In this document: one piece after another, positions 1 through 49,286 of the stretch | Layout of the letters: each line of letters opens with the position of its first letter | Numbering within the stretch: position 1 is the first letter of the stretch | NCBI GenBank assembly: GCA_049609225.1 | Contig: JBMYYH010000001.1 | Location: 84,373-148,372 of the forward strand | DNA length: 64,000 bases | Reading direction: 5' to 3' | Source: Planctomycetota bacterium | Lineage (GTDB): Bacteria; Planctomycetota; UBA1135 | Made by a program: the position numbers and the translations under genes | The notes under the pieces: model-generated | The model's input: the letters and a program-made list of their open reading frames with translations, nothing else | Told to the model about the DNA's origin: nothing | Database searches by the model: none

Positions 1-557
1 TCTTCCGAAGGAGTCATGCCGGCCTTACCCGGAGCCCAACCGGCAGGGCAGACCTGGCCACTTTCCTCAAGGAACGCCATGGCATCCAGCAGACGCAGGA
101 TCTCATCCATGTTGCGTCCGAGTGGCAAGTTGTTGACCATCTCGACCATGACCATGCCATCCTTCCCGATCAGGAAGGTGCCACGCATCGCGAAGGTGGT
201 CTCCTCATGGAGGACATCGTAGGCATTGGTCATGGAACGATCCTCGTCGCAGAGGAGCGGGTACTTGACCGGGCCGATGCCACCTTGGTCGATGGCGGTG
301 TTACGCCAGTTGGCGTGGGATTCTGCGTCGTCAATGGAGACACCCAAGACCTGGGCGCCGCGCTTTTGGAACTCACCGATGCGGTGATCAAAAGCGATCA
401 ATTCAGACGGTCACACGAAGGTGAAATCCTTAGGGTAAAAGAAGAGGACGACGGGCTGGCCCTTGTAATCAGACAAGGAAACCTGCTTGGTCGAGCCGTC
501 TTCCATGACCGCGGTAGCCGTGAAATCGGGCGCGGTTTTGTTGACGAGGACTGCCAT
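1..557 (-). CDS. Typical 2-Cys peroxiredoxin (AhpC/Tsa family). The C-terminus is cut by the window edge. An in-frame TGA (411-413) sits at the peroxidatic-Cys codon, making this a candidate selenocysteine peroxiredoxin.
   Basis: ATG at 557-555. The frame reads [12 protein letters not shown]...[13 protein letters not shown][TGA][28 protein letters not shown]...[19 protein letters not shown] and stays open to position 3. FTFV-C-P-(T/S)-E and VCPAGW are the canonical peroxidatic and resolving Cys motifs. Confidence 0.8.
361..396 (-). promoter_or_regulatory. SECIS-like bipartite hairpin 14 nt 3' of the peroxiredoxin TGA
   Basis: The minus-strand RNA folds as CGCUUUUG-AU-CACCG-CAU-CGGUG-AGUUC-CAAAAGCG. 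This gives an 8-bp perfect lower stem (396-389 / 368-361) and a 5-bp upper stem (386-382 / 378-374). Confidence 0.45.
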
Positions 558-586
558 GTTTATTTCTGGGATTGGGGACGGGCGAA

Positions 587-601
587 GCCCGGGGAAGGCC
601 A
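587..601 (-). promoter_or_regulatory. Weak candidate sigma-54 promoter for the peroxiredoxin gene
   Basis: The minus strand reads TGGCCT-TCCCC-GGGCTT, with GG (600-599) and GC (588-587) at the canonical GG-N10-GC spacing, about 30 nt upstream of ATG 557. Only the core dinucleotides and TGGC match the consensus TGGCAC-N5-TTGCW. Confidence 0.3.
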
Positions 602-619
602 TTCTAGGAGGGGTCCCAG

Positions 620-641
620 AAATCTCAATTTCGGGACGATT
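620..641. promoter_or_regulatory. 22-nt operator-like motif, near-identical to one in the norR-norC intergenic region
   Basis: AAATCTCAATTTCGGGACGATT here versus AAATCTCGAATTTCGGGAGATT at 4862-4883. The site lies inside the dyad GAAATC-N13-GATTTC (619-643). Confidence 0.5.
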
Positions 642-713
642 TCGTAGTAAATGCGACTCTCGGAAGGAATCCTCATAGGATGACAAACGATCGGCACGAC
701 ACCCCCCCACTCT

Positions 714-1862
714 ATGAGACTCCAGAAGCATCCTGACCTCCTAGCTCATTCCGAGCACCGCCATGCCACTTGGTTGGAGCTGTTCTTTGACCTCGTTTTC
801 GTTGCTGCTATCAGCGTGGTGACCCACAACCTCCTGGCTGTCCACGACGGGCATCTCGAACATGGACATGCCTGGCTATTTCCCCAGGAACTCATCCCCA
901 TCTGGTGGGTGTGGGCTTCCCAAACCCTCTTCGCCAATCGTTTCGACACCGACGGCCACCATCACCGCCTGGCCAATCTCATAATTATGCTGTTGGTGGC
1001 GACCATAGCCACCCTTCTTGGGGGCGCCTGGGCTCAAGAGACGGGAATGTTCCTGGCCTTCTACATCTCGGTGCGGATGATTTTGGCTTGGCTTTATCGA
1101 CAAGCCTCAGAGCATCAGGCCGTGTGTAAACCATTCGCACGTAAGATGAGTTTGGCAGTTGTCCTGGGCACCGCGATTTCCGCTACAGCGTTATTTCCTT
1201 CCTCACCGTGGCGTGAAATTTTATTCCTCTCAGGAATCGCATTTGAGATGATTTGTGTTGCACTTTGGAGTAAGGATAAAGATGCGCCAGAGGTCGACCG
1301 AGAACACCTCATCGAGCGCACCGGTTTGTTGTCCATTATTTTGCTCGGCGAGTCGGTCCTTAACTTGGTTTCGGCCCTGCGCAATTACAATTGGACGCCG
1401 TGGAGCCTGTCCGCTGGCCTTTCCGGGTTCATTATGCTGGGCAGCATTTGGTGGATTTATTTCGACAGCTTCAACCGACTCGGACAGGCCAAGCGACTGC
1501 GCAATGGCCTGGTGGTGCTGTATTCGCACGCGTTGTTCATCATGGGACTCGGCATTCTTGCCAGCCTGATCGCTCACGCTGTGCGCAGCGACATCGTCAT
1601 GACCGACTATCGCGTACTCGCAATCGGTGGCATGACTTTGCTATATCTGGGGAAGCAGATTCAGTACTACGTAGCCTTCCCGCCCTATCGCCGGAATATC
1701 CTCATCAACACGTCAGTCTGCATCGGCATCACTGCGGGCTCTGCGTTTTTACCTCGCCCTGAAATGGCCCTGATGGGCGCAACATGTGGACTCCTGTTCT
1801 GCGTTTTCAGCAGTGTCCGCTGGACCCTGAGCAAAGACGTTTCGGCGTACTTGAAGGGTTAG
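714..1862 (+). CDS. LtrA (low temperature requirement A) family integral membrane protein
   Basis: 382 aa and polytopic. The N-terminal [16 protein letters not shown] matches the LtrA-family signature as I recall it. Confidence 0.75.
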
Positions 1863-1872
1863 ACTCGTAAGC

Positions 1873-3189
1873 ATGCCGTTGCTCCTGGCACTTGCCCTGA
1901 CCCTAGCCCCGCAAGACCCTTCCGCGGAATCCGTGAATGTGGCTTCGGAGGCTTCCGATCCCTTTGGCGCCGTTGCGATGCCGGAGTTGGACCGCAGTGA
2001 ATACCGTGCTTGGCGTAGGTACTTGCGTCCGACGGATGAGGAAGCAGCCTTTGAAGCGATTCCGTGGCTCCCCACCTTTGCGGATGGCTTGAAGGCCGCC
2101 GAAGAAGCGCAGTTGCCGCTCCTGCTGTGGGTGATGAACGGGCATCCGCTCGGCTGTACGTGAAACAATGGTGTCGCGGGCCGTGTGTCCGTGTTCTCTG
2201 ATCCACGGATTGCAGAGTTGTCGAAGGCATTCCTGCCTGCGGCGGATGAGGTTTGGCGTTTGCAGCGCGGCGGCGATGCCGAATGTCAGTTCTTCCAGCG
2301 CGCGGTCAACGGTGGCAAGTTGATCACCGACAATGGCACGCGCCAAGGCATCTACGTGATGGCGCCTTCGGGTGAGGTGCTGGCGCGCGTGAACAGCCTG
2401 AAGGCCGATCGCGTCTTGCAGATGATGCAGGAAGGACTGGCCGCATGGGAAGCACTACCGGAGGAACGCCGCCATCTGGCGTCGGATACACGACTGGAGG
2501 GTGAGGAGCGCTGGGAAGATTCCCGCCCGACGGAAGGTTTGTTGTTGTCGCGCATCGTGCGTGACCTACCCGTCGAAGGCACGGTGGACGGCACCCGCGC
2601 CACGCGTTGGAATCGCGATACATTGTGGTTCTCCAAGGAGGAGGTGGAACAGTTGGTCAAGGATGCACGGGACCGACCGGCCGATTGGGTGCCCCTCCCC
2701 CGCGCCTTCGCCCGACGGCTGGCCTGCTTCACCTTCGTCGACAATGTCTACGGCCAGTGCATTCCCTTCGACATGGAGGATGTCACGCAGATGCAATTGG
2801 AAGTGCGTTGGGAGTCCGAAGACGACGACAACCTGCACCTTCGGTTCCGCGGACGTACGGCGGCTGCGGAAGATGGCGAGTGGCGTCTGGGCGAGAACTT
2901 GTGGAAGCCGAAGAACATGCATGCGCATGCCTTGGAAACCACCATGCTCGGCAGTGGCACTTTCGACCTACACAGCCGCAGCTTCGTTGCCTTCGAGATG
3001 CTCGCACTCGGACGTCGCAGCGGCTTCACAGAGTTGAACAGCCGACGTTTCCGCCCCGAGCCAGGCGGCATCGGCTTTTTGATTCAACTGGATCGTCGCG
3101 CCTGGTCCGCCGCACCGACCTTCATCGCGCTTTATGAAGCGGATTGGGTCAAGCCGCCGACCAAAGGGCGGGAACTGACCAAAGACTAA
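1873..3189 (+). CDS. Secreted protein with a thioredoxin-fold-like N-terminal region. It is read as one gene through the in-frame TGA 2161-2163 (candidate Sec, context GCT-U-NNG).
   Basis: ORFs 1873-2163 and 2185-3189 are in the same frame, separated only by TGA plus 7 sense codons. The junction reads LPLLLWVMNGHPLGCT[TGA]NNGVAGRVSVFSDP. The N-terminus MPLLLALALTLAP is signal-like. The gene starts 10 nt after ltrA. Confidence 0.5.
2175..2193 (+). promoter_or_regulatory. SECIS-like hairpin starting 11 nt 3' of TGA 2161-2163
   Basis: CGCGGGC-CGUGU-GUCCGUG: a 7-bp stem (two G-U pairs) with a 5-nt loop containing GU. Confidence 0.4.
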
Positions 3190-3195
3190 GGCGCA

Positions 3196-4830
3196 TCAGG
3201 CCTTGCCCTTAGCGGCTTCGCGGATGCCAAGCCGCACGCTGAGGTGATGCAGATTGCTGCGATGCATGCCGAGTTCGCGTGCTGCCGCGGCCCATACTCC
3301 GTCGTGGCGAAGCAGTGCCTCACGAATGAGCATGCGCTGATAGTCCTCGACGGCTTCGCGCAATGGCCGTGGCTCATTTTTGGCCTCCTCAGAGGTTGGA
3401 GTCTCCATCTTGACCGGTGGGACCTCCACCGACGCACTCTCCTTCTCCGACACATTCGCTGGCACGAAGTCGCCACCTAGGTCGGCGCGTTGCACCAGGA
3501 TGAGGTTGCCGCGCAATACGCGGCCACTCGCTCGGAGGACCGCTCTGGAAAGGGTGTTCTCCAGTTCACGCACGTTTCCAGGCCAAGCGAACTCACGTAG
3601 GGCTTCGAGGGCGTCGGGGTGGAGGCGAATTGGGCCTAGACCTAACTGACGTCGGGTCTGATCGCAGAAATGACCGGACAGGACCGCGATGTCTTCGCGT
3701 CGGGCGCGGAGAGGCGGGACCACCAAACGGCAGACGTCGAGGCGGTGCAGCAGGTCCGAGCGGAAATGGCCGGCCTCAACCTCCTTTTCCAAGACGCGAT
3801 TGGTGGCTGCAAAAACTCGTACTGAAACACGATGCGTCTTGTCCGAACCCACGCGCTGGATCTCTCCTGATTGCAGCGCACGAAGCAGCTTGGGTTGCAC
3901 CGACATCGGCAACTCTCCAATCTCATCAAGGAAAAGGCATCCACCATCGGCAACTTGGAATTTGCCCAAGCGCTTGTGCGTCGCACCGGTGAAGCTGCCG
4001 GATTCATGGCCGAAGAGTTCGCTCTCCACCACGGATTCCGGCAAGGCTGCACAGTTCACATAGATCAGTGGCTTGGCCGAACGGGTCGACTCCTGATGCA
4101 GGCGCTGGACCACGAGTTCCTTACCGGCGCCGGTCTCGCCGGTGATGAGTACTGGAAAATCAGAGCCCGCGAACAGGGCAATCTCTTCCAGCAGGTTCGA
4201 CATCGCCTCACTCTGCCCCACCATACGCACGGTTGGCTTGGGCCCCTCAGCCAACAGGGCGTCGGCAATGAGGTCTTGCTTCTGGGCCGCGCGCTCGAGG
4301 GCGTCGTCCAGATCGGCGGTGCGCAGTGCCGCGGTGGCGAAGGCTGCGAGCAGATCGAGCAGGATGATGGGCACCTTGTCGAAGGTCCCCGGTGCGATGG
4401 CATCCAACGCAAGGACTCCGATCAAGCGATCTCCGATCCGAAGGGGCACTCCCATGCAGGCATGGACGTGACTTGTGAAACCTTTGTGCCCATCAAGCAG
4501 ACCATCAAAGGGGTCGGCCAACGGCGAGTCTGCAGGGAATCGCACCGCCTCTTCGGCTTTGCAGATGACGGAAAACCGCGGGTTATCCGAGATGTGGAAA
4601 GCGTGACCATGGGCCTCGTCAGCCAGTCCCAGGGAAGCCACTGGGATGAGGGCTTCGTCTTGGGTCCGTAGCAGGGTGACGGCATCCGCCTTCAACAAGC
4701 GCTGCACGCCGACCACGAAGCGTTGGTAACGCTGCTCGGGGTCCAGGGTCAAAACGAGGTCTTGGGCAAGATCCCGCAGCCCTGGAAGCAGCGAAAGCGT
4801 TGTCGTTTGCACATCAGTTGTCGTTTTCAC
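3196..4830 (-). CDS. norR: Sigma-54-dependent NO-responsive transcriptional activator (NorR type: GAF domain, AAA+ domain, Fis-type HTH)
   Basis: GTG start. Walker A is VLITGETGAGKE, with ESELFGHESGSFTGA and a C-terminal HTH AAARELGMHRSNLHHL. It is divergent from the nor operon. Confidence 0.85.
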   Translation of the reverse strand: MKTTTDVQTTTLSLLPGLRDLAQDLVLTLDPEQRYQRFVVGVQRLLKADAVTLLRTQDEALIPVASLGLADEAHGHAFHISDNPRFSVICKAEEAVRFPADSPLADPFDGLLDGHKGFTSHVHACMGVPLRIGDRLIGVLALDAIAPGTFDKVPIILLDLLAAFATAALRTADLDDALERAAQKQDLIADALLAEGPKPTVRMVGQSEAMSNLLEEIALFAGSDFPVLITGETGAGKELVVQRLHQESTRSAKPLIYVNCAALPESVVESELFGHESGSFTGATHKRLGKFQVADGGCLFLDEIGELPMSVQPKLLRALQSGEIQRVGSDKTHRVSVRVFAATNRVLEKEVEAGHFRSDLLHRLDVCRLVVPPLRARREDIAVLSGHFCDQTRRQLGLGPIRLHPDALEALREFAWPGNVRELENTLSRAVLRASGRVLRGNLILVQRADLGGDFVPANVSEKESASVEVPPVKMETPTSEEAKNEPRPLREAVEDYQRMLIREALLRHDGVWAAAARELGMHRSNLHHLSVRLGIREAAKGKA

Positions 4831-4861
4831 AGCGGGTATTGTAGTCGAAAAAACAACCTCA

Positions 4862-4917
4862 AAATCTCGAATTTCGGGAGATTACTCTATTTTCGGAGTT
4901 AGAGATATTAATATCTC
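4862..4917. promoter_or_regulatory. Cluster of three dyad symmetries, a candidate enhancer (UAS) for NorR
   Basis: AATCTC-N9-GAGATT (4863-4883), CTCTA-N10-TAGAG (4885-4904), and the perfect 16-nt palindrome GAGATATTAATATCTC (4902-4917), which abuts the -24 element. Confidence 0.4.
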
Positions 4918-4932
4918 GGCACGCTTTTTGCT
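4917..4932 (+). promoter_or_regulatory. Sigma-54 (-24/-12) promoter of the nor-nir operon
   Basis: CGGCACG-CTTT-TTGCT versus consensus TGGCACG-N4-TTGCW. It lies 56 nt upstream of the norC ATG and next to a sigma-54 activator gene. Confidence 0.65.
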
Positions 4933-4987
4933 CCCTCCCCGGTGAGCCAAGAGCTCAACCTCCCAACCCAAGACCTGAGAACACCTC

Positions 4988-5719
4988 ATGCTCACCAAAT
5001 CAGCCGCCAAAGCGTTCTTCCTGGGCGGCACAGCCTTGTGCAGCATCGCCTTCGTGCTCCTCTCCATGGACACGCTGGCACAGATGCCGGATCGCTCGAA
5101 CCAGGACCAGATGTCGGATTCCGTCGTACGCGGACACCATATCTGGAACAAGAACAACTGTATGGGCTGCCACACCATCATGGGTGAAGGCGCCTACTAC
5201 GCACCGGAATTGACCCTTGTCATGGAACGACGCTCCAAAGCTTGGATCGCCGAATTCCTGAAGGACCCGGAGCGCATGTACCCAGGTCGCCGCAAGATGA
5301 CCAAGTACGACTTCTTCGATCCTGCCATCGTCGGTGAGGAAGAAGCTGCCAAGAACGTCGACGACATCGTCGCCTTCTTTACATGGGTCGGCAAGATCGA
5401 CCTCAACGGCTTCCCGGCTGAGCCGGATATGGCTACTTCGCCTCGGCTCGTGACTCCTGATGTCACCGAGTCGGACGCCCTGTCCGCTGCCCCTACATAC
5501 TTTTCCACGGTTTGCACGAGCTGTCACGCCGTCAATGGCGCCGGCGGCAACGTCGGTCCGGACCTGGCTGGTGTTGCCGACCGCTATGAGCCAGATTACC
5601 TACGCAAGTGGGTTTCCGACCCGAACTCGGTGAAGCCTGGCACCGCCATGCCAAACCTTGGCCTTCAAGGCGAAGAGCTCGAGCAAATCCTTTCCTACCT
5701 AGGAACCCTCAAGGAGTAG
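4988..5719 (+). CDS. norC: Nitric oxide reductase subunit C with an extra C-terminal class I cytochrome c domain (diheme)
   Basis: N-terminal TM helix, NorC-like CMGCHTIMGEGAYYAPELT, and a second heme site CTSCHAVNGAGGNVGPDL...PGTAMP. Confidence 0.85.
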   Translation: MLTKSAAKAFFLGGTALCSIAFVLLSMDTLAQMPDRSNQDQMSDSVVRGHHIWNKNNCMGCHTIMGEGAYYAPELTLVMERRSKAWIAEFLKDPERMYPGRRKMTKYDFFDPAIVGEEEAAKNVDDIVAFFTWVGKIDLNGFPAEPDMATSPRLVTPDVTESDALSAAPTYFSTVCTSCHAVNGAGGNVGPDLAGVADRYEPDYLRKWVSDPNSVKPGTAMPNLGLQGEELEQILSYLGTLKE

Positions 5720-5723
5720 GACC

Positions 5724-7073
5724 ATGTACGCAAAATCAACCAAGCTCGCGTGGACCTTCTTCGCCACGTGCATGGGCCTGTTCGCCCTGCAACTCCTCTA
5801 TGGATTCATCCTCGGCTTCGACCGCATGGGCTTCGATGTGCTCCATGATTGGATCCCCTTCAACACAGCACGCGCGACGCACACCAACCTGCTCGTCGTG
5901 TGGCTCTTGGCCGGCTTCATGGGTTCGGCCTACTACATCATCCCGCAGGAATCCGGTCGTGAGATCTGGAGCCCAAAGCTCGCCTGGATCCAATGGCTTT
6001 CCTTGGTCTTGGTCGGTGTCGTCGCCCTTATCGGCTACCACCTGAACTACTGGGAAGGACGCAAGTTCCTCGAGATCCCGCGCCCACTCGACTACCTTGT
6101 GGTTGTCAACGTGTTGGCTTTCTTGTTCAACCTCCTGATGACCATCTGGACGGGAAAAAACAAGAGCACGACAGCTATGGTGCTGTTCTTTGGCTTGCTC
6201 ATGGCCGCGTTGCTGTACCTGCCAGGCATGTACACCTTCGACAACATTGTGCATGATTCCTACTTCCGCTGGTGGGTGGTCCACCTCTGGGTAGAAGGCG
6301 TTTGGGAACTGATCATGGGTGCGATCCTTTCGTTCCTGTTGATCAAACTGACGGGTGTGGACCGCGAAGTGATCGAGAAGTGGCTGTACATCATCGTCGG
6401 CTTCACCTTCCTCTCCGGCATTCTCGGTACCGGGCACCACTACTACTTCACTGGCGCTCCCGGCTACTGGCTCATGGTTGGTGGAATTTTCTCGGCCCTC
6501 GAGCCGCTGGCCTTCCTCGGCATGGCCATGTACGCCATCGTCATGGCGCGCAGGGGCGGACGTAATCATCCAAACAAACTCGCTCTGACGTGGACCATTG
6601 GTTGCGCCATCATGAGTTTCGTCGGTGCTGGATTCCTTGGCTTTGCGCATACCCTTCCGGCGGTCAACATGTGGACGCACGGAACGCTGGTAACGGCAAT
6701 GCACGGTCACATGGCTTTCTGGGGCGCTTACGCGATGCTCATCCTGGCAATGATCACCTACGCCTTGCCGGAAATGACTGGGCGCAACCTCTTTAAGGGT
6801 TGGATCCCGGAATGGGCATTCTGGCTCAGCAACATTGGCATGATTTCGATGACGGGCGCCTTCGCCGTCATGGGTGTCGCCCAGGTGTACATGGAGCGTA
6901 AGTCCGGCATGGACTTCCTCGATGTGCAGGAGAGCTTGGAAATCCACGCTTTCGGCTTAGTCCTTGCTGCGGCGTTGTTCTCCATCGGCATTGGATTGTT
7001 CATCAAGAACTTCATCAGCTACGGCCTCCCGAACGACGAGGTCTTGGCAGCCCAAGAGGGCATAGAGGGTTAG
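5724..7073 (+). CDS. norB: Nitric oxide reductase subunit B (cNOR, heme-copper oxidase superfamily)
   Basis: 449 aa with 12 TM helices. Contains WWVVHLWVEGVWEL (the FeB His/Glu motif) and GTGHHYYFTG. Confidence 0.9.
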   Translation: MYAKSTKLAWTFFATCMGLFALQLLYGFILGFDRMGFDVLHDWIPFNTARATHTNLLVVWLLAGFMGSAYYIIPQESGREIWSPKLAWIQWLSLVLVGVVALIGYHLNYWEGRKFLEIPRPLDYLVVVNVLAFLFNLLMTIWTGKNKSTTAMVLFFGLLMAALLYLPGMYTFDNIVHDSYFRWWVVHLWVEGVWELIMGAILSFLLIKLTGVDREVIEKWLYIIVGFTFLSGILGTGHHYYFTGAPGYWLMVGGIFSALEPLAFLGMAMYAIVMARRGGRNHPNKLALTWTIGCAIMSFVGAGFLGFAHTLPAVNMWTHGTLVTAMHGHMAFWGAYAMLILAMITYALPEMTGRNLFKGWIPEWAFWLSNIGMISMTGAFAVMGVAQVYMERKSGMDFLDVQESLEIHAFGLVLAAALFSIGIGLFIKNFISYGLPNDEVLAAQEGIEG

Positions 7074-7076
7074 GAA

Positions 7077-7892
7077 ATGTCTGGGACCAACGTCATGTCT
7101 GAAAGTCAACAAGAGAAGGGGTTGGTCCCTTTCTACCAACCCATCGCGCAGGAGACCGATCTGTTCCTGCACTGCTGGCAGCAGAAACTGCCACTCATGC
7201 TCAAGGGGCCGACTGGCTGTGGTAAATCTCGATTCGTCGAACACATGGCAGAGCAGCTAGGCCGGCCTCTTGTTTCCGTCGCCTGTCACGACGACACCAG
7301 CGCTTCCGATCTACTCGGTCGTTGGTTGGTGCGCGGCGGCGACACCGTATGGCAAGATGGCCCTGCAACGCGCGCCGTGCGTGAGGGAGCCATCCTCTAC
7401 CTCGACGAAGTGGCGGAAGCCCGGCCCGATGTGGTCGTGGCCATCCACCCCCTTACTGACCACCGCCGTCGTCTGTTCTTGGAGCGCCACGATGAAGTGC
7501 TCGAAGCCATCGACGACTTCATGTTGGTGGTCTCCTTCAACCCCGGTTATCAGAAGGGTTGGAAGGAACTGAAGCCTTCGACGCGGCAACGTTTCGTCGC
7601 GCATAGCTTCGACTATCCCACGCCCGAACTCGAGACCCGCATTCTCTGCGGCGAGACCGGATGTGAAGTCGACCTCGCCAAACGCCTGGTGAAACTCGCC
7701 GGCAAGTTGCGCGGCCTGGAAGAGCTCGGCTTGGCAGAGAAAGCATCCACGCGCTTGTTGGTAGACGCAGTCCGCCTCATCCAAGCAGGCATGGCACCTC
7801 GTGTCGCTTGCATCGCTGCGATCTGCGAACCGCTGTCGGACGAAGCCGACATCCTCGAAGCCCTACGCGAAGTCGTCACGCTCGCCTTCTAG
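7077..7892 (+). CDS. norQ: NorQ/CbbQ-type MoxR AAA+ ATPase
   Basis: Walker A LMLKGPTGCGKS and Walker B AILYLDEV. About 270 aa, located between norB and norD. Confidence 0.85.
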   Translation: MSGTNVMSESQQEKGLVPFYQPIAQETDLFLHCWQQKLPLMLKGPTGCGKSRFVEHMAEQLGRPLVSVACHDDTSASDLLGRWLVRGGDTVWQDGPATRAVREGAILYLDEVAEARPDVVVAIHPLTDHRRRLFLERHDEVLEAIDDFMLVVSFNPGYQKGWKELKPSTRQRFVAHSFDYPTPELETRILCGETGCEVDLAKRLVKLAGKLRGLEELGLAEKASTRLLVDAVRLIQAGMAPRVACIAAICEPLSDEADILEALREVVTLAF

Positions 7893-7896
7893 TCTC

Positions 7897-9807
7897 ATGG
7901 TCCGACGCCAAGCACCACCGGAACTCCACCTCGACTTTGCCGAGGAGTTCTTTGGTGCCTTGTGGAAGCGATTCCGCAAGCGTCCGGTATGTCGCTATGA
8001 AGAGCAGGGTGCTCATTTCGAATCGATGGCGGCCTCCTTGGGCGCCGTCGCACAAGCCTTTGCCGGACGCCACGTGGTCGTGCGTCGGGCGGAAGGATCC
8101 GGAGGAGTGCACTCACATGTGGTGTTGTTGCCACGCCTCATCGCCTTGTCCTCAGAGGTCGCAGTGAACCGGCGCTTCCTGTTCACGCGTGCGGCTTTGG
8201 CAGGCGCCATGATCGCGTCGCAACTGGAGCAGACCGCAGAAAGTGCTGCACCCTCCATTCATCCGGAGCTCGCGTTCCTGCAACACGCGGTCGACACCGC
8301 ATGTAGTTTGAGCAAGGAGCATCCCGGATTCGCGGAACGTCTGCAGGAAGGCGCACGCTTGGAGCTGCAACAACGCCCAGGCGTGGATACCTACCGCGGC
8401 CATGGCGAGATCCTTGAACTGGCCCGACGCTCCGCCTTGATTGCCGTGCTGCAGGGGCAGTCTTGGGAGCCGGATCCATCTTGGTCCGTCGCCCTCACGC
8501 GCAAGGCCAAGAAGAGCCTGCCCTCTCCGGCGGTCCTGCTGTTCGGCAGTTCCCTGCCGCGTTCTGAAATGGATGTCGCTGAGCAGGCGATGTCGGAGGA
8601 AGAGAAGGCTGCGGGTATCGCAGCGGATGCCTCGGAAGTCGAGGCGCCGGTGAAGGATCATGTCAAACGCATCCTTCTGGAGGACGACGATCCCTACAAG
8701 GAGGCGATGCCGGATCATGCCTTCGAGAAGATCTCCTTCGCGGAGAAATACGAGGGTGGAAGACGTCGGATGGATGGCGAGGATGACATGGATGAGCAAC
8801 AGCAGTCGCTCGATTCCGTGGACCTGCGCGAACTGATCCGTGGTGGACCGGAAGTCCACAGTATCTACAAGGCGGACATCGGGGATACCGAAGGTATTCC
8901 AGACGTCGCATCGGTGGATCCGAAGGAGAAGGGAATCACCTACGACGAGTGGGATGAAAAGGCGCGCTGCTATCGCAGGGATTGGGTCACGGTCTATCCG
9001 ACCACCTTGCCGCCGTCGGAGGATGCTGCTTCGGAAGAGCAACGCCAACGCCTGGCCTCCACCGTGCGCACCTGCATGCGCCGTCTCGAACGCAAACGCA
9101 CCGAGCGACGTTCGCTCGACCGCCAACTCGATGGCAATGAGTTCGACCTCGCCGCCGTGGTCGAGGATCACGCGGCCTTGCGTTCCGGACAAACCCCAAG
9201 TGGTCGCATCTATCGCCACAACCCGCGCATCGATCGCGACCTCGCCACGACCGTTCTGTTGGACCTGAGTCTCTCCGCGGATTCCTGGGTCGGCGGACGT
9301 CGGGTACTCGACGTCGAACGCGATGCAGCCTTCGTTCTCGGGGAAGTCGCCGAAAAGATCGGCGATTCCCTGCAGATCATGGCCTATGCCTCGAACACCC
9401 GCAATCTCTGTCGCATGTGGGACGTCAAGTCCTGGCACGAACCATGGCGCCTCGGCGCCGCGCGCCTGCAACAGCTGAAACCTCAAGGCTACACGCGCAT
9501 TGGCCCGGCGATTCGCCATGCCACCGCGAGCCTCGAGGCCCATGATGCACGTCATAAGCACCTCATCCTCATCACTGACGCCAAACCTACAGATTTCGAT
9601 CGCTATGAAGGCAACTACGGAGTCCATGACGTCCGCCAAGCCGTGCGTGAAGCGGCTTCGCAGGACATTGGCGTTCACGCCCTCGGCATTGACCCGAAAT
9701 GCGCTGGCATCCTGCCGGTGATGTTCGGGGTTCGAGGCTGGAAGCTCCTACCCCATCTTGCGGAACTTCCTGAAGCACTCGTCAATGCCTATGGCGACCT
9801 CTGTTGA
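7897..9807 (+). CDS. norD: NorD, a von Willebrand factor A domain protein
   Basis: I chose the ATG 4 nt after the norQ stop; the track's earlier start at 7801 overlaps norQ. The C-terminal VWA domain has the MIDAS motif LLDLSLSADS and ends in ILITDAKP. Confidence 0.8.
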   Translation: MVRRQAPPELHLDFAEEFFGALWKRFRKRPVCRYEEQGAHFESMAASLGAVAQAFAGRHVVVRRAEGSGGVHSHVVLLPRLIALSSEVAVNRRFLFTRAALAGAMIASQLEQTAESAAPSIHPELAFLQHAVDTACSLSKEHPGFAERLQEGARLELQQRPGVDTYRGHGEILELARRSALIAVLQGQSWEPDPSWSVALTRKAKKSLPSPAVLLFGSSLPRSEMDVAEQAMSEEEKAAGIAADASEVEAPVKDHVKRILLEDDDPYKEAMPDHAFEKISFAEKYEGGRRRMDGEDDMDEQQQSLDSVDLRELIRGGPEVHSIYKADIGDTEGIPDVASVDPKEKGITYDEWDEKARCYRRDWVTVYPTTLPPSEDAASEEQRQRLASTVRTCMRRLERKRTERRSLDRQLDGNEFDLAAVVEDHAALRSGQTPSGRIYRHNPRIDRDLATTVLLDLSLSADSWVGGRRVLDVERDAAFVLGEVAEKIGDSLQIMAYASNTRNLCRMWDVKSWHEPWRLGAARLQQLKPQGYTRIGPAIRHATASLEAHDARHKHLILITDAKPTDFDRYEGNYGVHDVRQAVREAASQDIGVHALGIDPKCAGILPVMFGVRGWKLLPHLAELPEALVNAYGDLC

Positions 9808-9827
9808 ACCACTAACGAAAAAACAAC

Positions 9828-11282
9828 ATGTTCCTGTCCACTCTCATCCCGCTGGCAATGGCCAGTACCCTGCTGCAGGCCGAACAAGGCAGCGGAACGG
9901 GTCTTCTCGACCTCCGTGAAACGCCCGTTTCGTCGGAGTTCGGTGCAGTCATCGGCGAAGAAAACGCCGTGCTCACCGCACCACCGCATGTCCCGGCTCC
10001 GATTACCCGTAATCACCCGACCAAGCTCATCGTGAACTTGGAAGTGAAGGAGTTCGTCGCTGAAATCGCAGACGGTGTCGACTACACCTTCTGGACCTAC
10101 GGCGGCACCGTGCCTGGTAGCTTCATTCGCACACGCGTCGGCGATGTCGTTGAATTCAATCTGAACAACGATCCGTCGAGCAAGATGCCGCACAACATCG
10201 ACCTGCACGCTGTCACCGGTCCTGGTGGTGGTGCTGCCTCGAGTTTCACCACTCCTGGTCACACTTCCCAGTTCTCCTTCCAGGTCACCAACCCTGGCCT
10301 GTATGTCTATCACTGCGCCACCGCGCCAGTCGGTATGCACATCGCCAACGGCATGTACGGCCTGATCCTGGTCGAGCCCGCAAAGGGCCTCGGTACTGTC
10401 GATAAGGAGTACTACCTGATGCAAGGCGACTTCTACACCGAAGGCGCTTACGGCGAGCCAGGCCTGCAGCCCTTCAGCATGAAGAAGGCTCTGCAAGAGA
10501 TTCCTGATTACGTGCTGTTCAATGGTTCGGTCGGCGCCCTCGTTGGCGACAAGGCCATCACCGCGGAAGTCGGCGAGACCGTTCGCCTTTACGTCGGTAA
10601 CGGTGGACCAAACCTGGTCAGCTCCTTCCACGTCATCGGCGAGATCTTCGATACCCTCTACCCGGAAGGTGGCTCGGTGGTGAACAAGAACGTGCAGACG
10701 ACCTTGATCCCGGCTGGTGGTTCCGCCATCGTCGAGTTTGAGGTGGAAGTGCCTGGCACCTTCATCATCGTCGACCACAGCATCTTCCGTACCTTCAACA
10801 AGGGTGCTCTCGGCATGCTGAAAGTGACTGGTCCTGAGGACAAGTTGGTCTACTCCGGCAAGCAAGACGACCGCATCTACCAAGGTGAGGGCGGAGCCAT
10901 CCAAGAGATCCCGGCTTCCGATGCTCCTAAGGTCCCATCCACGCGCACCAAGGAAGAGCGTATGGCCTTGGGCAAGCGTCTTTACGACACCAACTGCCTC
11001 GCATGCCACCAGGCTAACGGCGAAGGTATTGCTGCCGCATTCCCACCACTGGCCAAGTCCGATTACCTGATGGACGACAAGAAGCGTTCGATCAAGGTCA
11101 TGCTCGAAGGACTCAGCGGTGAAATCACCGTCAATGGCGTGAAGTACAACGGTGTGATGCCGAAGGTCGTCATGACCGACGACGAGATCGCCAACGTCCT
11201 GACCTACATCCGCAACTCGTGGGGCAACAGCGGCGACGCCGTCACCCTCAACGAGATCGGCGAAGTCAAGAGCGGTCACTAG
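9828..11282 (+). CDS. nirK: Copper-containing nitrite reductase NirK with a fused C-terminal cytochrome c domain
   Basis: [15 protein letters not shown] and [19 protein letters not shown] (Cu ligands), plus C-terminal [11 protein letters not shown]...NGVMP. Confidence 0.9.
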
Positions 11283-43504: not shown

Positions 43505-43521
43505 ATTTCGCGCGCGGTCGA

Positions 43522-44682
43522 TCAGGATTCCGACCCGCGTTCGCGCGCTTGCTCTTGGCTTTGACGCATGACGGCCAGTGCTGCATGCGTGCAGGCCGAC
43601 AGAATCGCGTTCTCCTCTCCCCACTGGCGCATGAGGGCAAGCACTTGTCGCATCGCCAGCTTGGCATCTGCCTTCGCGGAGTTCTCTGGCATGTCCAGTT
43701 GCTCTTCAATCTGCAAATAGGACCACCGACGCACCTCATGCAGTACCAGAACCCGCTGCTGACTCATGGGCAATGCGTGGAAGTAACGTCCGGCGAGCCC
43801 CATCGCGTGCCTTCCGACGCCGTACCGTTCCAACCAAGTTGCCATGTAGAGATAGGGATTCAGGTGCAGTCCCAGTTTTTCCCAGCGCTCTGTAAACCAA
43901 TCTTGATTCGCCTGCAGGTCCAGGAAATCCAACCCACAGCCAGACCAGACCACCCCATACTGTCGGACAAGCTGACGCTTGATCTGCCCTTCCATTTCCT
44001 GGAGGGTTCTTTGAAACACTCTCTTGGAAGCTTGGGACGCAGCTAACTGGGTCTGCTCTTCGAGATGAAAGATATGCTTGAAGGCGATGGACTTGCGCGT
44101 TTTGTAATCATATTCAGAAAGCACGTGCAAGAACCGACGTAACCAGTTGCGCAAACACTCTTCCGAGACACAAGCGGAGAGCATATAGGATCTGCCGGAA
44201 GACACCAAGGGAGTCGCGACAGCACGTGCTCGAATTCCTGCGTTCTCCAATGCCGTCGCCTGCAACTCGATATTCTCCTTGAGATTGACGATAGTGTCCT
44301 CGCCAAGGAATCCTTGAATCAAATCGACCCTCTTCCGAAAGGACAGGCCCCCCGGAAACCGCGACGGCAAGAGGCTTGCTCCATGACCCAGATTTCGTTC
44401 ATGGAAGGGCTCGTTCCGCAGACAACCGTCGAGGAAACCAAACTTCCCGAGTTGCACCTCCAACTCCGCAAAAAAGCTGCGCAGGATTCCCTTGTTGCGG
44501 AATTCGCGTAGGACCAGCCAAACATCATCGAGGGTCGTTCGCGGGGCGAAGATCTTGGGTTTGGGCTCTCCGAACCACCGCACCAAAGTGCGGTTTCGCG
44601 AATCCAAGCGCACCAACCCTGGCCAAAGCCATTGTGCGAAGGCGGTGATTTCCTGCGGCGAAGGAGTGTGATGGTGGGGCAT
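43522..44682 (-). CDS. Hypothetical protein with only a sigma-70 region-4-like HTH at the C-terminus
   Basis: ALPMSQQRVLVLHEVRRWSYLQIEEQLDMPENSAKADAKLAMRQV resembles region 4. I do not recognise the ~270 aa N-terminal part. Confidence 0.4.
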   Translation of the reverse strand: MPHHHTPSPQEITAFAQWLWPGLVRLDSRNRTLVRWFGEPKPKIFAPRTTLDDVWLVLREFRNKGILRSFFAELEVQLGKFGFLDGCLRNEPFHERNLGHGASLLPSRFPGGLSFRKRVDLIQGFLGEDTIVNLKENIELQATALENAGIRARAVATPLVSSGRSYMLSACVSEECLRNWLRRFLHVLSEYDYKTRKSIAFKHIFHLEEQTQLAASQASKRVFQRTLQEMEGQIKRQLVRQYGVVWSGCGLDFLDLQANQDWFTERWEKLGLHLNPYLYMATWLERYGVGRHAMGLAGRYFHALPMSQQRVLVLHEVRRWSYLQIEEQLDMPENSAKADAKLAMRQVLALMRQWGEENAILSACTHAALAVMRQSQEQARERGSES

Positions 44683-44838
44683 CGGCGAGGGAAAGAATCT
44701 CTAAGCTTCGTGGAGCTTAAGGGCAGCAACCCGCCAATTGCAACATCCTATTAAAAGAAACTTCCTAACCCTCGCTGATTGGGGCAGCAGCTTGTGGGGA
44801 TCCGCGAGCGAAGGTGTGCTGGAGGATTCAGAATCTAA

Positions 44839-45159
44839 TTAGATAGAAACTGCCGCGACCACGGCAGCGCACAGCCCTGAGAGGAGGAAATAGCCTCCCG
44901 AAACCATCATCATTCCCTTGGCCATCTGTTCCTTCTTGAAAATGAGTAGGATGATCGAGGTCACCATAAGGAAAGGGAACTGGACAAAGCCCATGAGGTA
45001 GAAGAGGGCATTAACCACCAGATGGTCATCGACGCCGCCGCCCTCTAGGGTAAGGAAGGTAAAGAACAAGACGATGACCATAAAAACGGCAAGCCCAGCA
45101 CCCTGGCTGAAACCGTCCAGTTTGTTTGCTCTGTCCTTGTCGTTCGGTGGTCGATCCAT
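44839..45159 (-). CDS. Small polytopic membrane protein, paralogue C of a tandem trio
   Basis: 106 aa. Contains GFVQFPFLM...EQMAKG...LLSGLCAAV. The start is set at ATG 45159. Confidence 0.45.
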   Translation of the reverse strand: MDRPPNDKDRANKLDGFSQGAGLAVFMVIVLFFTFLTLEGGGVDDHLVVNALFYLMGFVQFPFLMVTSIILLIFKKEQMAKGMMMVSGGYFLLSGLCAAVVAAVSI

Positions 45160-45173
45160 ACGGCAGTCCCGGG

Positions 45174-45512
45174 TTACATGCTGCTTGCGCAGAGACTGGT
45201 ACCTATCAAGGCTAACAAAAGCAGGAAGGTGGCACCTTTCGCCTGTTCGCGGTTTCCAATACGTAGGCAGCGCCAAATGAAGAGTGGCATATAGAGGAGC
45301 TGGGTCCATCCAACAGCCAGAGCCAGGACCATTCCCATGAAGAAGGTATCCGGCTCCTGCAGGAATAGCATCGAACCTGCCAAGAGAAACAGGCCACCCT
45401 GCACCGCAATCATGAGGAACATGGCGCCTAGGAACCCACTCAAGAAGTTATCGAGATCCTGCTTCGGAGGTTCACCATCCTCTGAAAACTCATCCAATGG
45501 CAGCGCCCGCAT
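45174..45512 (-). CDS. Small polytopic membrane protein, paralogue B
   Basis: 112 aa. Contains GWTQLLYMPLFIWRCLRIGNREQAKG...LIGTSLCASS. Confidence 0.5.
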   Translation of the reverse strand: MRALPLDEFSEDGEPPKQDLDNFLSGFLGAMFLMIAVQGGLFLLAGSMLFLQEPDTFFMGMVLALAVGWTQLLYMPLFIWRCLRIGNREQAKGATFLLLLALIGTSLCASSM

Positions 45513-45837
45513 TGCATAAGCTCGTGAACAGGAAAAGCACGCCTGAGACCCAAAGAACTCCCTTTGCGGCTAATGGCTCCCCCCTTCGGTTTAGGCGCCA
45601 AGCCAATGGGAATAGGTAGAGCAACTGCAGCCATCCGATTTGGAAAAAAAGGACCACGACGAGGATTTCTTCCAGGTTACTGAAATGGAATACGTAGAAG
45701 TCTAGGGTGAAGAATAGAATCGCCAGGACCGGGTGCAGAGTCAGGGCCCAAAATATGGCCTTCTTCACACCGGCGGCAACTGTGCTGGAGTCCATTGGCT
45801 CCGGCTCCATGACACTCTCTCCCCGCTCCTCATTCAT
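45490..45837 (-). CDS. Small polytopic membrane protein, paralogue A
   Basis: 115 aa. Contains GWLQLLYLFPLAWRLNRRGEPLAAKG...LFTSLCNAG. Its ATGA overlaps the radical SAM stop. Confidence 0.5.
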   Translation of the reverse strand: MNEERGESVMEPEPMDSSTVAAGVKKAIFWALTLHPVLAILFFTLDFYVFHFSNLEEILVVVLFFQIGWLQLLYLFPLAWRLNRRGEPLAAKGVLWVSGVLFLFTSLCNAGAAIG

Positions 45838-47273
45838 ACTTCCTCCACCTCCCTCAAGCCGCGCAGTTTCGCCAGGACTGTCCTCTCAAGCTCACCGCGA
45901 TAGAACAGGTTGTAGGTTTCCAAGGGAATGAGGCGGCCATCTTCCGGGTGGACCACATGCACACAACTCTTCTTGATGGAGCGCACATCAAAATCATGTG
46001 CATCGAGGAAACGCATGATCACCACTCGGAAAACACGGTCGTAGCCGAGGTCATCGGGCACTTCGAACTGCGGCAGGCAACAAAGCAGGTCAGCCAGGCT
46101 ATTCGCACTGGAATCGGGGCTGTGTGCCGTCGACAACATGTCGAACAGCTTTTGCTGTAGTCGCGGATCACCCTCGAAGGTGATGGTATTGCGGGAATGA
46201 TCCATCAGCATCTGCGGATCGAAGAGGCCGGTGAGGGGAACCGGGCCCTGTTCCGTCTTCAAGGCATAGGCCATCGCGATGCAATCGGGATGACATGGGA
46301 CCGGCATAATGTCGTCGGGGGTGAAGACATCGGTCTGCGCAAGGATGTTGTTACGCACTTCGGTGAGGATCAGGCGATCGGGGCTTGCCTCATGCAGTGG
46401 AGCCCCATGGCTGAGATCCACACGTCCGGCGTCCTGCATCGGCTGGAAGGTCACGCCGCGGACGGCCGGTTGCTGCATCGCGTAGTCGATGATGCGCCCG
46501 CATTCCTGATCATTCAGCCCCTTCACCAAGGTCACCACCAAGGTCGTGGATAAACCTAGTGCATTGAGACGTTCCAAGGCCTTGGCCCGGACGTCGCGAA
46601 GATCTCCCCCACGCAACTGTCGCAGCGGCTCCTCTTCAAGCGAGTCGAACTGCAGATAGATCTCCAGGCCCGGCATGTATTCCGCCAAACGTTCGGCGAA
46701 CCCAGGCTCCTGCGCAATCCGCAAGCCGTTGGTGTTGATCATCAAATGCCGGATCGGTCGCTCCCGTGCCGCATCCATGATGCGAAAGAACTCCGGATGC
46801 AACGTGGGCTCCCCACCGGATAGTTGCACCACATCCGGTTCACCTTCACTCGCCACGACGGCATCAAGCATCCGCACGATCTTGTCGTAGTCATGAAATC
46901 CACCTGTATGCGGACCGCTCTCGGCATAGCAGACCGGGCAACTCAAGTTGCATCGCTCCCCCAGCTCGATCAAGGTCACGCAGGAATGCTGTTCATGATC
47001 CGGGCACAAGCCGCAGTCATAAGGGCATCCATATTTCACCGGCGTCTGGAAGCTATTCGGCATCTCCGACGGCTTCAGGAAACGCTCTCGCGCCTGCCTG
47101 TAATACGCGACGTCGTCCGCGATGAGGACACGCTCCTTTCCATGCTGCAGGCAATGCTTCTGCATCCATACCTTGTCATCCTGAAACAGGATCTTGGCAT
47201 CGACGCGCTGCAAGCAGGTCGAGCAGATGGATAAGGTGAAGTCGTAGTACTGGTAATCGCGGACGCGGGTCAT
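45834..47273 (-). CDS. Radical SAM enzyme with multiple Cys clusters (architecture like archaeal tetraether lipid synthase Tes/GDGT-MAS)
   Basis: CNLSCPVC (46929-46952), i.e. CxxxCxxC. The N-terminus has CSTC...CLQH, and CPYDCGLCPDHEQHSC precedes the radical SAM core. 479 aa. Confidence 0.8.
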   Translation of the reverse strand: MTRVRDYQYYDFTLSICSTCLQRVDAKILFQDDKVWMQKHCLQHGKERVLIADDVAYYRQARERFLKPSEMPNSFQTPVKYGCPYDCGLCPDHEQHSCVTLIELGERCNLSCPVCYAESGPHTGGFHDYDKIVRMLDAVVASEGEPDVVQLSGGEPTLHPEFFRIMDAARERPIRHLMINTNGLRIAQEPGFAERLAEYMPGLEIYLQFDSLEEEPLRQLRGGDLRDVRAKALERLNALGLSTTLVVTLVKGLNDQECGRIIDYAMQQPAVRGVTFQPMQDAGRVDLSHGAPLHEASPDRLILTEVRNNILAQTDVFTPDDIMPVPCHPDCIAMAYALKTEQGPVPLTGLFDPQMLMDHSRNTITFEGDPRLQQKLFDMLSTAHSPDSSANSLADLLCCLPQFEVPDDLGYDRVFRVVIMRFLDAHDFDVRSIKKSCVHVVHPEDGRLIPLETYNLFYRGELERTVLAKLRGLREVEEV

Positions 47274-48010
47274 ACCGTTGCCTTGGAAACGCGGATGAGA
47301 TCACGCAGAAGAATCACTGCACCGATCAGACACGCCATCTGAATGATACGTAGACCACCGTACACCTCATAGGGTTTCAGGAAGTCGACGAGGAAACGGG
47401 AAACGAGATATCCGAACAGGAAGAGACGAAAACTGTCACCCTCGCGCTGAAAACGACGTGTGGGGTTCTGCAAGTAAGCCTTTAGGGCGAAACCGAAGGC
47501 CACGAGGAACAAGATTTCATAAAGCGGTGCAGGGTGACGTGGAATGCCGTCGCCAAAATCGATGCCGAAGATGGAATCCGTTGGGACACCAAGCGTGTCA
47601 TCGTTCAAACCGGCGGCCAGGCAGCCGATGCGCCCGATAGCCATGCCGATGAGCAGCGGGAAAGTGAACAGGTCACCCGTGCGGGACTGGATGTTGTAGA
47701 TCCTTTTGACGGCCTCCACCACGAACCATCCGCCGAGCAGTGCCCCCACGATGGTTTTCCCCCCAGCCAAGTAAAGCACTCGCTCCAATGGACTGTGGCC
47801 TTCCCAAAAGGCCAGGAACTCCGAAGGCGATGCCAAATGATGCAACAGCTTCGACCCGATGGCCGCACCCAAAACCGCCGCAACCAGGACCGTCGTTCGT
47901 GTGTTGTTCGGGACGGGATCCCCGAGCGTCTTCCGTTGACTGCGATAGACCCTCCACGCCACGAAGTAAGCGAGTCCCTCGAACAGGAGGTGGGTCGCAG
48001 GATGCATCAT
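47270..48010 (-). CDS. Lgt (prolipoprotein diacylglyceryl transferase) family membrane protein, short paralogue
   Basis: 246 aa. Contains GKTIVGALLGGW, GRIGCLAAGLNDDTLG and RHPAPLYEILFL. Its ATGA overlaps the radical SAM start. Confidence 0.8.
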   Translation of the reverse strand: MMHPATHLLFEGLAYFVAWRVYRSQRKTLGDPVPNNTRTTVLVAAVLGAAIGSKLLHHLASPSEFLAFWEGHSPLERVLYLAGGKTIVGALLGGWFVVEAVKRIYNIQSRTGDLFTFPLLIGMAIGRIGCLAAGLNDDTLGVPTDSIFGIDFGDGIPRHPAPLYEILFLVAFGFALKAYLQNPTRRFQREGDSFRLFLFGYLVSRFLVDFLKPYEVYGGLRIIQMACLIGAVILLRDLIRVSKATV

Positions 48011-48037
48011 CCAGCCTAGAGTTTCAGAAGCACGGTC

Positions 48038-49138
48038 TTAGAAATCCATGTCGTCTTCGGCCTCGGCACTATCGACCAGGCCCTGCAGTTCGGACAGGAA
48101 CATATGGACGAAAGGCGTAGCATCCATGAAACCCTCCGCTTCAGGCTGCGGATGGAAATGGACGAGATTGGGGTCTTTCGGCGTTTGCAGGGTTGCGCGG
48201 TAGTTGGCTCGAAGCTGAAAATCGTAGTCCTCCTCAAGACCGTACTCCCTGCCGCGGAAGCTCCAATCGAAATCGACCGCCAGTGGAATGCCGGAATGCG
48301 CATCAAAGCTCATGGAAACGGGATTCCTTTCGATGAAGGAATGGACCATCTCCATGATGGCATCGACTTCTTCTTCGGCCTGCTCGCCCCCCATTTCCTC
48401 CGCGATGAACATTTGGACCATTGCCAGCAGGACGGAATCCTCGCCGGTATCCAAGGTGAACACGGCCTCGACGAGGTCATCCTTCTTGTGGAAGCTGCGG
48501 CAGATGAGATACGGGTTGGAAGTGTTCCAGTAGATCGTTGGGTGGAAGAACGAAACGAAATCGGGTGCGAAGTACCCGTCAGCTGCATCGAAGATCAACC
48601 TGGTGGACTCGGCTTCCGCATCTCCTTCCTCTGCCAAAGCAGAGAGGAAATCTGAACCTAAGTCGAGGTAGGTCTGATAGACCGTTTCGAGTACGTCTTG
48701 CTCCACCTCAACGCGATATCCGTTCTCCACCATCGGAAGAAAGTCTGATTGGACATAGACGGACATCTTTTTGCCATCCATAAGCAGATCGAGATCGAAT
48801 GCACCTGAACCTTCTTCTCTTGCATCCATCTTGATCCATACGGAATGCTGAAGTTCCTCGCCAGAGCGGAATCCGAGATTGCCCTCTGCGGTGAGGTCAC
48901 CCTCGACGCCGAAAATATCATCGGGGCCCTCACTCATACTGATGTAAGCCGCAACCTCATAAGTGAGGTAAAAGGGGATCACCTTACGTTCGACTGCGGC
49001 GGCACACCACTCGGTGTAGGCAGCGTGGCTCTCCGCGACTTCCTTGGAGTCGACGGCTGGAAGAGAAGGCGGGGCTTCCGACTCTTGGGCCGGTGCCATG
49101 GGCATGGCGGTGAGGAGGAGCAGGGATATGGCGAACAT
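48038..49138 (-). CDS. Secreted, very acidic hypothetical protein
   Basis: Signal MFAISLLLLTAMPMAPAQ. I recognise no family. It lies 27 nt upstream of the Lgt-like gene on the same strand. Confidence 0.5.
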   Translation of the reverse strand: MFAISLLLLTAMPMAPAQESEAPPSLPAVDSKEVAESHAAYTEWCAAAVERKVIPFYLTYEVAAYISMSEGPDDIFGVEGDLTAEGNLGFRSGEELQHSVWIKMDAREEGSGAFDLDLLMDGKKMSVYVQSDFLPMVENGYRVEVEQDVLETVYQTYLDLGSDFLSALAEEGDAEAESTRLIFDAADGYFAPDFVSFFHPTIYWNTSNPYLICRSFHKKDDLVEAVFTLDTGEDSVLLAMVQMFIAEEMGGEQAEEEVDAIMEMVHSFIERNPVSMSFDAHSGIPLAVDFDWSFRGREYGLEEDYDFQLRANYRATLQTPKDPNLVHFHPQPEAEGFMDATPFVHMFLSELQGLVDSAEAEDDMDF

Positions 49139-49286
49139 GATGAGATTCTAGAAGTCGAGGCTTTCTTGGCTACCTTATTCATCGAGGGTGTCTTCGAATA
49201 TCCTGCGGAGCAGGCGAAAACTGTTGATGAGGGCTATGGGCAGGGGTTTGGGCATGCATCACACGCCCGCTATTCTGCATCAAGGC

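Follow-up and report, generated by a model that had tools for sequence, protein, structure and literature searches.

The described enzymes closest to those of the locus reported here are the archaeal tetraether synthase Tes (GDGT-MAS; PDB 7TOL/7TOM), for which we know of no described Lgt or small-protein partner, and Lgt of Escherichia coli (phosphatidylglycerol:prolipoprotein diacylglyceryl transferase, PF01790/TIGR00544; PDB 5AZB/5AZC), whose substrates carry lipoprotein signal peptides of the PS51257 type. Homologues of Tes in bacteria, Planctomycetota included, have been proposed to synthesize brGDGTs (branched glycerol dialkyl glycerol tetraethers) or membrane-spanning lipids (PMC8941075, PMC11868695), and none of them has been experimentally characterised (PMC11868695, PMC13459092). 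Second copies of Lgt are known in ~1,300 genomes, among them MSMEG_5408 of Mycobacterium smegmatis, in a study that leaves gene context undiscussed (PMC13251419). Here we analyze a 64,000-nucleotide stretch of a Planctomycetota genome (contig JBMYYH010000001.1, positions 84,373 to 148,372; hereafter the window), in which a Tes-like radical S-adenosylmethionine (SAM) enzyme and an Lgt paralogue are encoded next to three small membrane proteins that we call A, B and C (Table 1).

The family of the small proteins, the Lgt paralogue and the Tes/GDGT-MAS-like enzyme together make up a compact cassette of three components. We put at about even odds (probability roughly 0.5) the proposal that the Lgt paralogue would use the small proteins as its dedicated thiol acceptors and that the Tes-like enzyme would remodel the lipid.

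Three diverged members of an unnamed membrane protein family

The original prediction described three tandem paralogous proteins, which share one layout and end in TSLC-N, TSLC-A or SGLC-A. The genes were located at the coordinates given, on the minus strand, and paralogy, layout and terminal strings were borne out by BLASTP comparisons and by an alignment of the trio. Protein A matched B with E=5e-8 (29% identity over 104 aa) and C with E=1e-7 (35% over 72 aa), and B and C gave no significant BLASTP match to each other. Judged from their sequences, the three are old, diverged paralogues (27–35% identity), of which C is the most diverged. Each carries three transmembrane (TM) helices, a GxxQ motif, a basic loop that ends in AKG, and a Cys located 15 residues after that Gly; the invariant positions of the trio alignment include G68, Q71, A91-K92-G93, L107 and C108. 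In agreement with the claim that the open reading frames (ORFs) are genes, their codon-position GC (0.58/0.38/0.65) follows the order GC3>GC1>GC2 found in the neighbouring genes and unlike that of shifted frames, translation itself being predicted. The same genome holds no copy of the small protein beyond these three.

The extent of the family was assessed with a profile of seven sequences, in an all-against-all profile search of 1.84 billion representatives. At E≤1e-3 this returned 266 proteins, nearly all of them 85–135 aa long, 30 of which matched at E≤1e-10; the best match was A (4.4e-37), while B and C were found with E-values of 5.7e-32 and 9.6e-30. Other searches gave far shorter lists: a word-indexed search with protein A as single query returned the query alone, a word-indexed search with the seven-sequence profile recovered the window's own proteins and one relative only, and a locus search with a four-sequence alignment found just the two loci already known. 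No family in Pfam, NCBIfam or PADLOC covers the small proteins, and a Pfam scan of 63 members produced only scattered chance matches, each to a single member. The family to which A, B and C belong is conserved and unnamed; its members are inner-membrane proteins with three TM helices and a length of about 100–115 aa.

The Cys that had been singled out in the window copies is retained by homologues, being present in 141 of 144 representatives. Other conserved columns of the same set are G68 (137), Q71 (139), Y74 (122) and G93 (143). The distance from G93 to the Cys is 15 in 137 of 140 members, that from Q71 to G93 is 22 in 132 of 138, and charged residues account for only 4 of the 2019 positions between G93 and the Cys. 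The Cys closes the motif L-[NTS]-[AGS]-[ALT]-C and is followed by ~4–14 residues (median 9.5), which form an unconserved, hydrophobic tail resembling the end of a helix. The features that define the family, namely three TM helices, G68-x-x-Q71-x-x-Y74 in TM2, K92-G93 where TM3 begins, and the Cys at +15, are all found in A and B; C fits them all save Y74, where it has a Phe.

An AlphaFold2 model of A, generated with 43 sequences (predicted local distance difference test, pLDDT, of 82.4), places helices at residues 20–49, 56–84 and 88–114, and a Foldseek comparison of this model to the PDB yielded no structural analogue below E=7. The TM2–TM3 loop is strongly basic, with 4.2 K/R versus 0.56 D/E per protein, and the TM1–TM2 loop is mildly acidic. 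On the basis of the positive-inside rule and the basic TM2–TM3 loop, we predict an N-in/C-out topology in which the Cys falls within the part of TM3 that spans the outer leaflet. Longer family members carry zinc ribbons or soluble extensions at their N-termini, which is consistent with a cytoplasmic location for this end of the protein. Among the proteins of this subfamily, no fusion with either enzyme was seen. In some relatives, a CxxC...CxxC zinc ribbon replaces or precedes the first helices (L078 6413-6631; P0160; L084 5997-6407), and the 72-aa protein of locus L078 consists of a zinc ribbon and a single TM helix only, in which the KG-helix-xAC module is kept with the same 16-residue spacing.

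Linkage of the family to its two enzyme neighbours

The radical SAM enzyme of the window matches PF04055 (9.2e-25) and the zinc ribbon PF23545 (1.8e-18), and aligns over its full length to the tetraether synthase GDGT-MAS (PDB 7TOL; residues 12–466, E=1.7e-64), with which it shares both the zinc ribbon and the radical SAM core. Unlike archaeal Tes, it occurs in a bacterial host and is known from sequence alone, and its score lies below the NCBIfam cut-off for Tes (NF045702; 253.4 versus 450). Its score is also below the cut-off for TrsS (NF045646; 300.6 versus 490), and with no in-frame TGA in the gene its identification as a TrsS selenoprotein was rejected. In other Planctomycetota (L102, L104, L110, L111; G248, G141, G052, G226), two to three Tes/TrsS-like radical SAM genes are found in tandem with no Lgt neighbour; G052 and G226 each have a single in-frame TGA in one Tes-like match, as expected for the selenoprotein TrsS type.

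The Lgt paralogue scores 87.1 bits against PF01790 (cut-off 24.9) and falls below every cut-off of the NCBIfam equivalogs (47.4 versus 334, and 38.5 versus 118.9). It is a second copy, since the canonical Lgt of the same genome (179 bits) is encoded on another contig (C4). An alignment of 30 such paralogues to E. coli Lgt showed that none has lost the catalytic residues R143 and R239 or the residues Y235 and E202, and that Y26 is replaced by His in 25, H103 by Val in 26 and N146 by Cys in 30. The window copy retains the four conserved residues and differs from the E. coli enzyme in carrying Val at H103, as well as His at Y26. The N146C replacement was initially considered as a possible hallmark of the paralogues and was dropped as such, a Cys being present at this position in the genome's canonical Lgt too. 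The combination of Y26H and N146C is shared with MSMEG_5408 (PMC13251419).

A linkage that is conserved across families and in at least two phyla gives strong support to the suggestion that the small proteins are partners of the Lgt-like and radical SAM enzymes encoded next to them. Among 401 Planctomycetota genomes sampled, ~45, distributed over many families, carry an orthologue of the radical SAM enzyme at ≥53% identity, and the neighbours were examined at 25 of these loci. The Lgt paralogue adjoins the radical SAM gene in all 25, and this constant pairing sets it apart from canonical Lgt. A hidden Markov model (HMM) of the small family detects members beside the pair in 18 loci. Copy number, whose variation between genomes had been raised as a point to check, ranges from one to four per locus next to single-copy enzymes (one copy in nine loci, two in five, three, as in the window, in one, and four in three). 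Divergent small membrane ORFs occur in six of the seven HMM-negative loci; their last helix closes with small-small-Cys, as in the tails GFGLACC, LLNTFC, KGMAVG...C and AFGIG[ATC]C, the last of these in two genomes of a single genus, and one is the 72-aa zinc-ribbon protein, in which K-G and 14 residues precede the Cys.

In relatives of the window genome, the orthologues of the radical SAM enzyme are 78%, 71% and 57% identical to it. The two closest relatives carry Lgt, radical SAM and two small homologues in the same order as in the window, one of them with ATGA coupling. The small proteins themselves are only ~30% identical between genomes whose radical SAM enzyme is 78% identical.

The association also holds when the family is taken as the starting point. 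The profile finds matches in 24 of the 401 genomes, 21 of which also have the radical SAM orthologue (base rate ~11%), and the family is thus not common without the enzyme pair. The three exceptions are an MFS transporter (a false positive), a match at a contig end, and an orphan copy that lacks the Cys. Regarding copies located away from the cassette, two in a cassette-bearing genome (G320) lack the Cys, and a third, in another genome, keeps it. Six further homologues were looked up in public assemblies, and 7 of the 7 contigs recovered, including one metagenome-assembled genome of Acidobacteriota, carry the Lgt paralogue, the zinc-ribbon radical SAM gene and one or two small proteins, at GC contents of 36% to 58%. 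On one of these contigs, the trio has phage genes for a capsid and a protease at its flanks.

On an 8.4-Mb contig and a matching short contig (L089/L090, positions 1-10342), the trio lies between a gene for an AAA_25 protein and phage genes for a capsid protein and a prohead protease (Peptidase_S78), which are followed by SIR2_2 and HerA-like genes. This trio may be carried on a prophage or island.

The pattern extends to more distant Tes-like genes (35–40% identity), at which an Lgt paralogue is adjacent in 9 of 16 loci. Near these Tes-like/Lgt pairs, Cys-tailed small membrane ORFs are enriched approximately seven-fold (11 in 52 kb, versus 5 in 163 kb of background), and they are at background level near Tes-like genes without Lgt (1 in 28 kb); the samples are of limited size and contain related genomes. 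At some distant pairs (L107 2442-3930; L026 8971-9996; L099 5457-6263), tandem HMM-negative small membrane ORFs flank the enzymes and end in SGAC, TGAC, SAAC, IGAC or FAVC; these may be analogous or very diverged acceptors.

These data bear on the notion that the ORFs are non-coding, or encode unrelated small membrane or immunity proteins whose adjacency to the enzymes is incidental. It draws on the lack of Pfam, NCBIfam and PADLOC annotation and on the single-sequence search that returned the query alone, but the profile identifies 266 relatives, the codon-position GC is of coding type, and adjacency across many Planctomycetota families and Acidobacteriota contradicts it; we regard its probability as close to negligible. 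In particular, the alternative role in immunity that had been put forward is unsupported, since the cassette contains no toxin-like gene and a PADLOC search matched no defence family, with only a generic radical SAM (viperin) similarity.

The last helix as a candidate lipid acceptor

TM3 resembles a lipoprotein signal peptide in its succession of a positive segment, ~14 uncharged residues, small residues and a Cys, the latter predicted to point toward the periplasmic leaflet. The length of the uncharged stretch lies within the 7–22 residues of a canonical h-region. The distance between Lys and Cys is 16 in the family, and 10–24 (median 14) in the genome's own set of 69 candidate lipoprotein signal peptides. 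With this layout of n-region, h-region and Cys, TM3 could present a thiol to an Lgt-type enzyme. We therefore considered a scheme in which the last helix would work much as a lipoprotein signal peptide does, though from an internal, C-terminal position, and would expose the thiol of its Cys, in the outer leaflet, to the Lgt paralogue, whose active site would face the periplasm. The paralogue, having kept both catalytic arginines, would place a diacylglyceryl-type group on the Cys as a thioether, and the Tes-like enzyme, at the cytoplasmic face, would join hydrocarbon tails by C–C coupling, either in the attached lipid or in the lipid donor, so that the resulting anchor would be macrocyclic or span the membrane. 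Docking of the radical SAM enzyme would fall to the conserved GxxQxxY and RG...KG elements at the cytoplasmic side, and the tandem copies would represent alternative acceptors.

The resemblance has its limits. In contrast to a lipoprotein signal peptide, the element in the small proteins is the last helix (residues 85–115 of 106–115 aa) rather than an N-terminal one, the 4–14 residues after the Cys leave no mature domain, and the consensus includes an extra polar residue and often a non-small residue at position -1. The original prediction had likened the Cys context to a lipobox, and this comparison stands in part: the n-region/h-region/Cys arrangement suits a substrate of Lgt, but the motif departs from the canonical one.

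Several observations weigh against a role of the small proteins as acceptors. Position -3, usually Leu in a lipobox, is N, T or S in 134 of 144 representatives; position -1 is A, G or S in 77 and Leu or Thr in 51, with Leu in all three window copies; and the lipobox pattern [LVI][ASTVI][GAS]C is not matched by the window copies, which read TSLC, TSLC and SGLC. The Cys is located ~7–10 residues inside the end of the helix and not at the interface, and a few family members have no Cys or a shifted one. The conserved TM2 motif and cytoplasmic loop exceed what a bare substrate signal needs, and would suit a stable subunit equally well. With respect to the enzymes, MSMEG_5408, with its Y26H and N146C signature, is presumed to be of low Lgt activity (PMC13251419), and we infer the role of the radical SAM enzyme in tail coupling purely from its homology to Tes.

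It is possible, although we would sooner bet against it, that the small proteins are accessory subunits of a complex that remodels free lipids, acting as membrane adaptors or lipid-presenting scaffolds and not as the final acceptor. The enzymes would then make or remodel lipids such as membrane-spanning or macrocyclic diacylglycerol lipids, and the Cys would have a transient catalytic, carrier or structural role. Points in favour of a subunit are the translational coupling of the genes and their fixed order behind the radical SAM gene. The soluble radical SAM enzyme must dock from the cytoplasm, and it is on this side that the conserved GxxQxxY and RG...KG elements are found; in addition, bacterial Tes homologues have already been proposed as membrane-spanning lipid synthases (PMC8941075; PMC11868695). 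A subunit role fits less well with the near-invariant Cys, which is located in the outer-leaflet half of its helix, far from the cytoplasmic enzyme, and with the finding that Cys-tailed ORFs track the presence of Lgt and not that of a Tes-like enzyme by itself. Outside their motifs, the small proteins change rapidly, and they occur in one to four copies next to single-copy enzymes; minimal variants retain only the KG-helix-Cys module, and off-site copies have lost the Cys, all of which fits an acceptor better than a stoichiometric subunit.

The same helix could also be read as part of a precursor, in which a signal-peptidase-II-type cut before the lipidated Cys would free a lipopeptide (the Cys and 4–14 residues) from a three-TM body that serves as leader. 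The n-region, h-region and Cys are arranged as in a lipoprotein signal peptide, Ala, Gly or Ser at position -1 in 77 of 144 representatives would be compatible with such a cut, and tandem, variable copies recall precursor-peptide arrays. Leu or Thr at this position disfavours cleavage by LspA, however, and these residues are found in 51 of 144, with Leu in every window copy. Moreover, it is the presumed leader that is conserved, whereas the product is variable and has no conserved core, its hydrophobic tail having the character of a helix end, and the cassette includes no dedicated protease or exporter. We consider release of a lipopeptide improbable.

A further comparison concerns the signals of exosortases, archaeosortases and myxosortases (PEP-CTERM, PGF-CTERM and MYXO-CTERM), which are short C-terminal helix modules with a conserved small motif, recognized by a dedicated membrane enzyme. 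MYXO-CTERM includes a Cys, and some proteins sorted in this manner are thought to end up attached to lipid. These signals consist of a motif, a helix and a basic tail, in this order, and are carried by large secreted proteins. By contrast, the small proteins described here run from basic loop to helix to Cys, are tiny and polytopic, and have unrelated partner enzymes.

Genomic setting and implications

Table 1. Features of the cassette region in the window (coordinates from the first nucleotide of the window).
Feature	Coordinates	Strand	Evidence
386-aa protein 3' of the cassette	43522-44682	-	sub-threshold sigma-70 region-4 match
Weak terminator-like hairpin	44868-44849		at gene C
Small membrane protein C, 106 aa with ATG 45159 as start	44839..45159	-	motifs GFVQFPF, KKEQMAKG, SGLCA
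Small membrane protein B, 112 aa	45174..45512	-	ORF; motifs GWTQLLY, IGNREQAKG, TSLCA
Small membrane protein A, 115 aa	45490..45837	-	ORF; motifs GWLQLLY, RRG...AAKG, TSLC108N
Tes/GDGT-MAS-like radical SAM enzyme, 479 aa	45834..47273	-	N-terminal zinc ribbon, radical SAM core, C-terminal domain
Lgt-family paralogue, 246 aa	47270..48010	-	PF01790
Acidic secreted protein with signal peptide, 366 aa	48038..49138	-	ORF; no family match
Promoter-like site	49172-49145		consensus match only

In the 5' to 3' direction of the minus strand, the genes are arranged in the order 366-aa secreted protein, Lgt paralogue, radical SAM enzyme, A, B and C. The ATG of A, preceded by GGAGG, overlaps the radical SAM stop codon (ATGA), the B ORF overlaps that of A by 23 nt, and C starts 14 nt past B. 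A 156-bp spacer separates C from the 386-aa protein, for which the sole family signal is the match to sigma-70 region 4 (22.7 bits versus a cut-off of 25.7, residues 303–346). The gene for the secreted protein ends 27 nt upstream of the Lgt paralogue on the same strand. This protein has no family match in Pfam or NCBIfam and no tblastn match in the 25 related loci, and the 386-aa protein has no counterpart in any related cassette locus; neither is therefore part of the module. The secreted protein is probably co-transcribed in this genome, as a lineage-specific passenger of the operon.

The block that holds the cassette (43505-49140) has a GC content of 0.536–0.579 (0.536 at 44–46 kb), versus ~0.59–0.61 elsewhere, and the radical SAM orthologue was found in just one of eight other searched genomes of the same genus. 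The low GC and the sporadic occurrence within the genus suggest that the cassette was acquired horizontally. A fuller picture, which we offer as tentative, is that of a self-contained, horizontally mobile pathway in which the Lgt paralogue would lipidate a TM Cys and the Tes-like enzyme would weld the lipid tails, tying a protein covalently to a macrocyclic or membrane-spanning lipid.

A full-text search of the literature returned no publication in which a small Cys protein is connected with both an Lgt paralogue and a Tes-like enzyme, and the three-component module appears to be undescribed. Since both enzymes are from known families, the novelty resides in their combination and in the small-protein family rather than in the folds, and the cassette suggests a protein-lipid modification that has yet to be described. 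Bacterial Tes homologues are counted in genomes and metagenomes as markers of brGDGT producers, although none has been tested (PMC8941075, PMC11868695), and a second Lgt is taken to be a weak duplicate (PMC13251419). The cassette reported here ties both enzymes to a Cys-bearing microprotein in a large clade, and many Tes hits may therefore report a different chemistry, which would affect the interpretation of lipid biomarkers. An unannotated family of several hundred clusters gains a context and, if the small proteins are indeed acceptors, the cassette would represent a new protein-lipid linkage that is approachable as a three-gene system.

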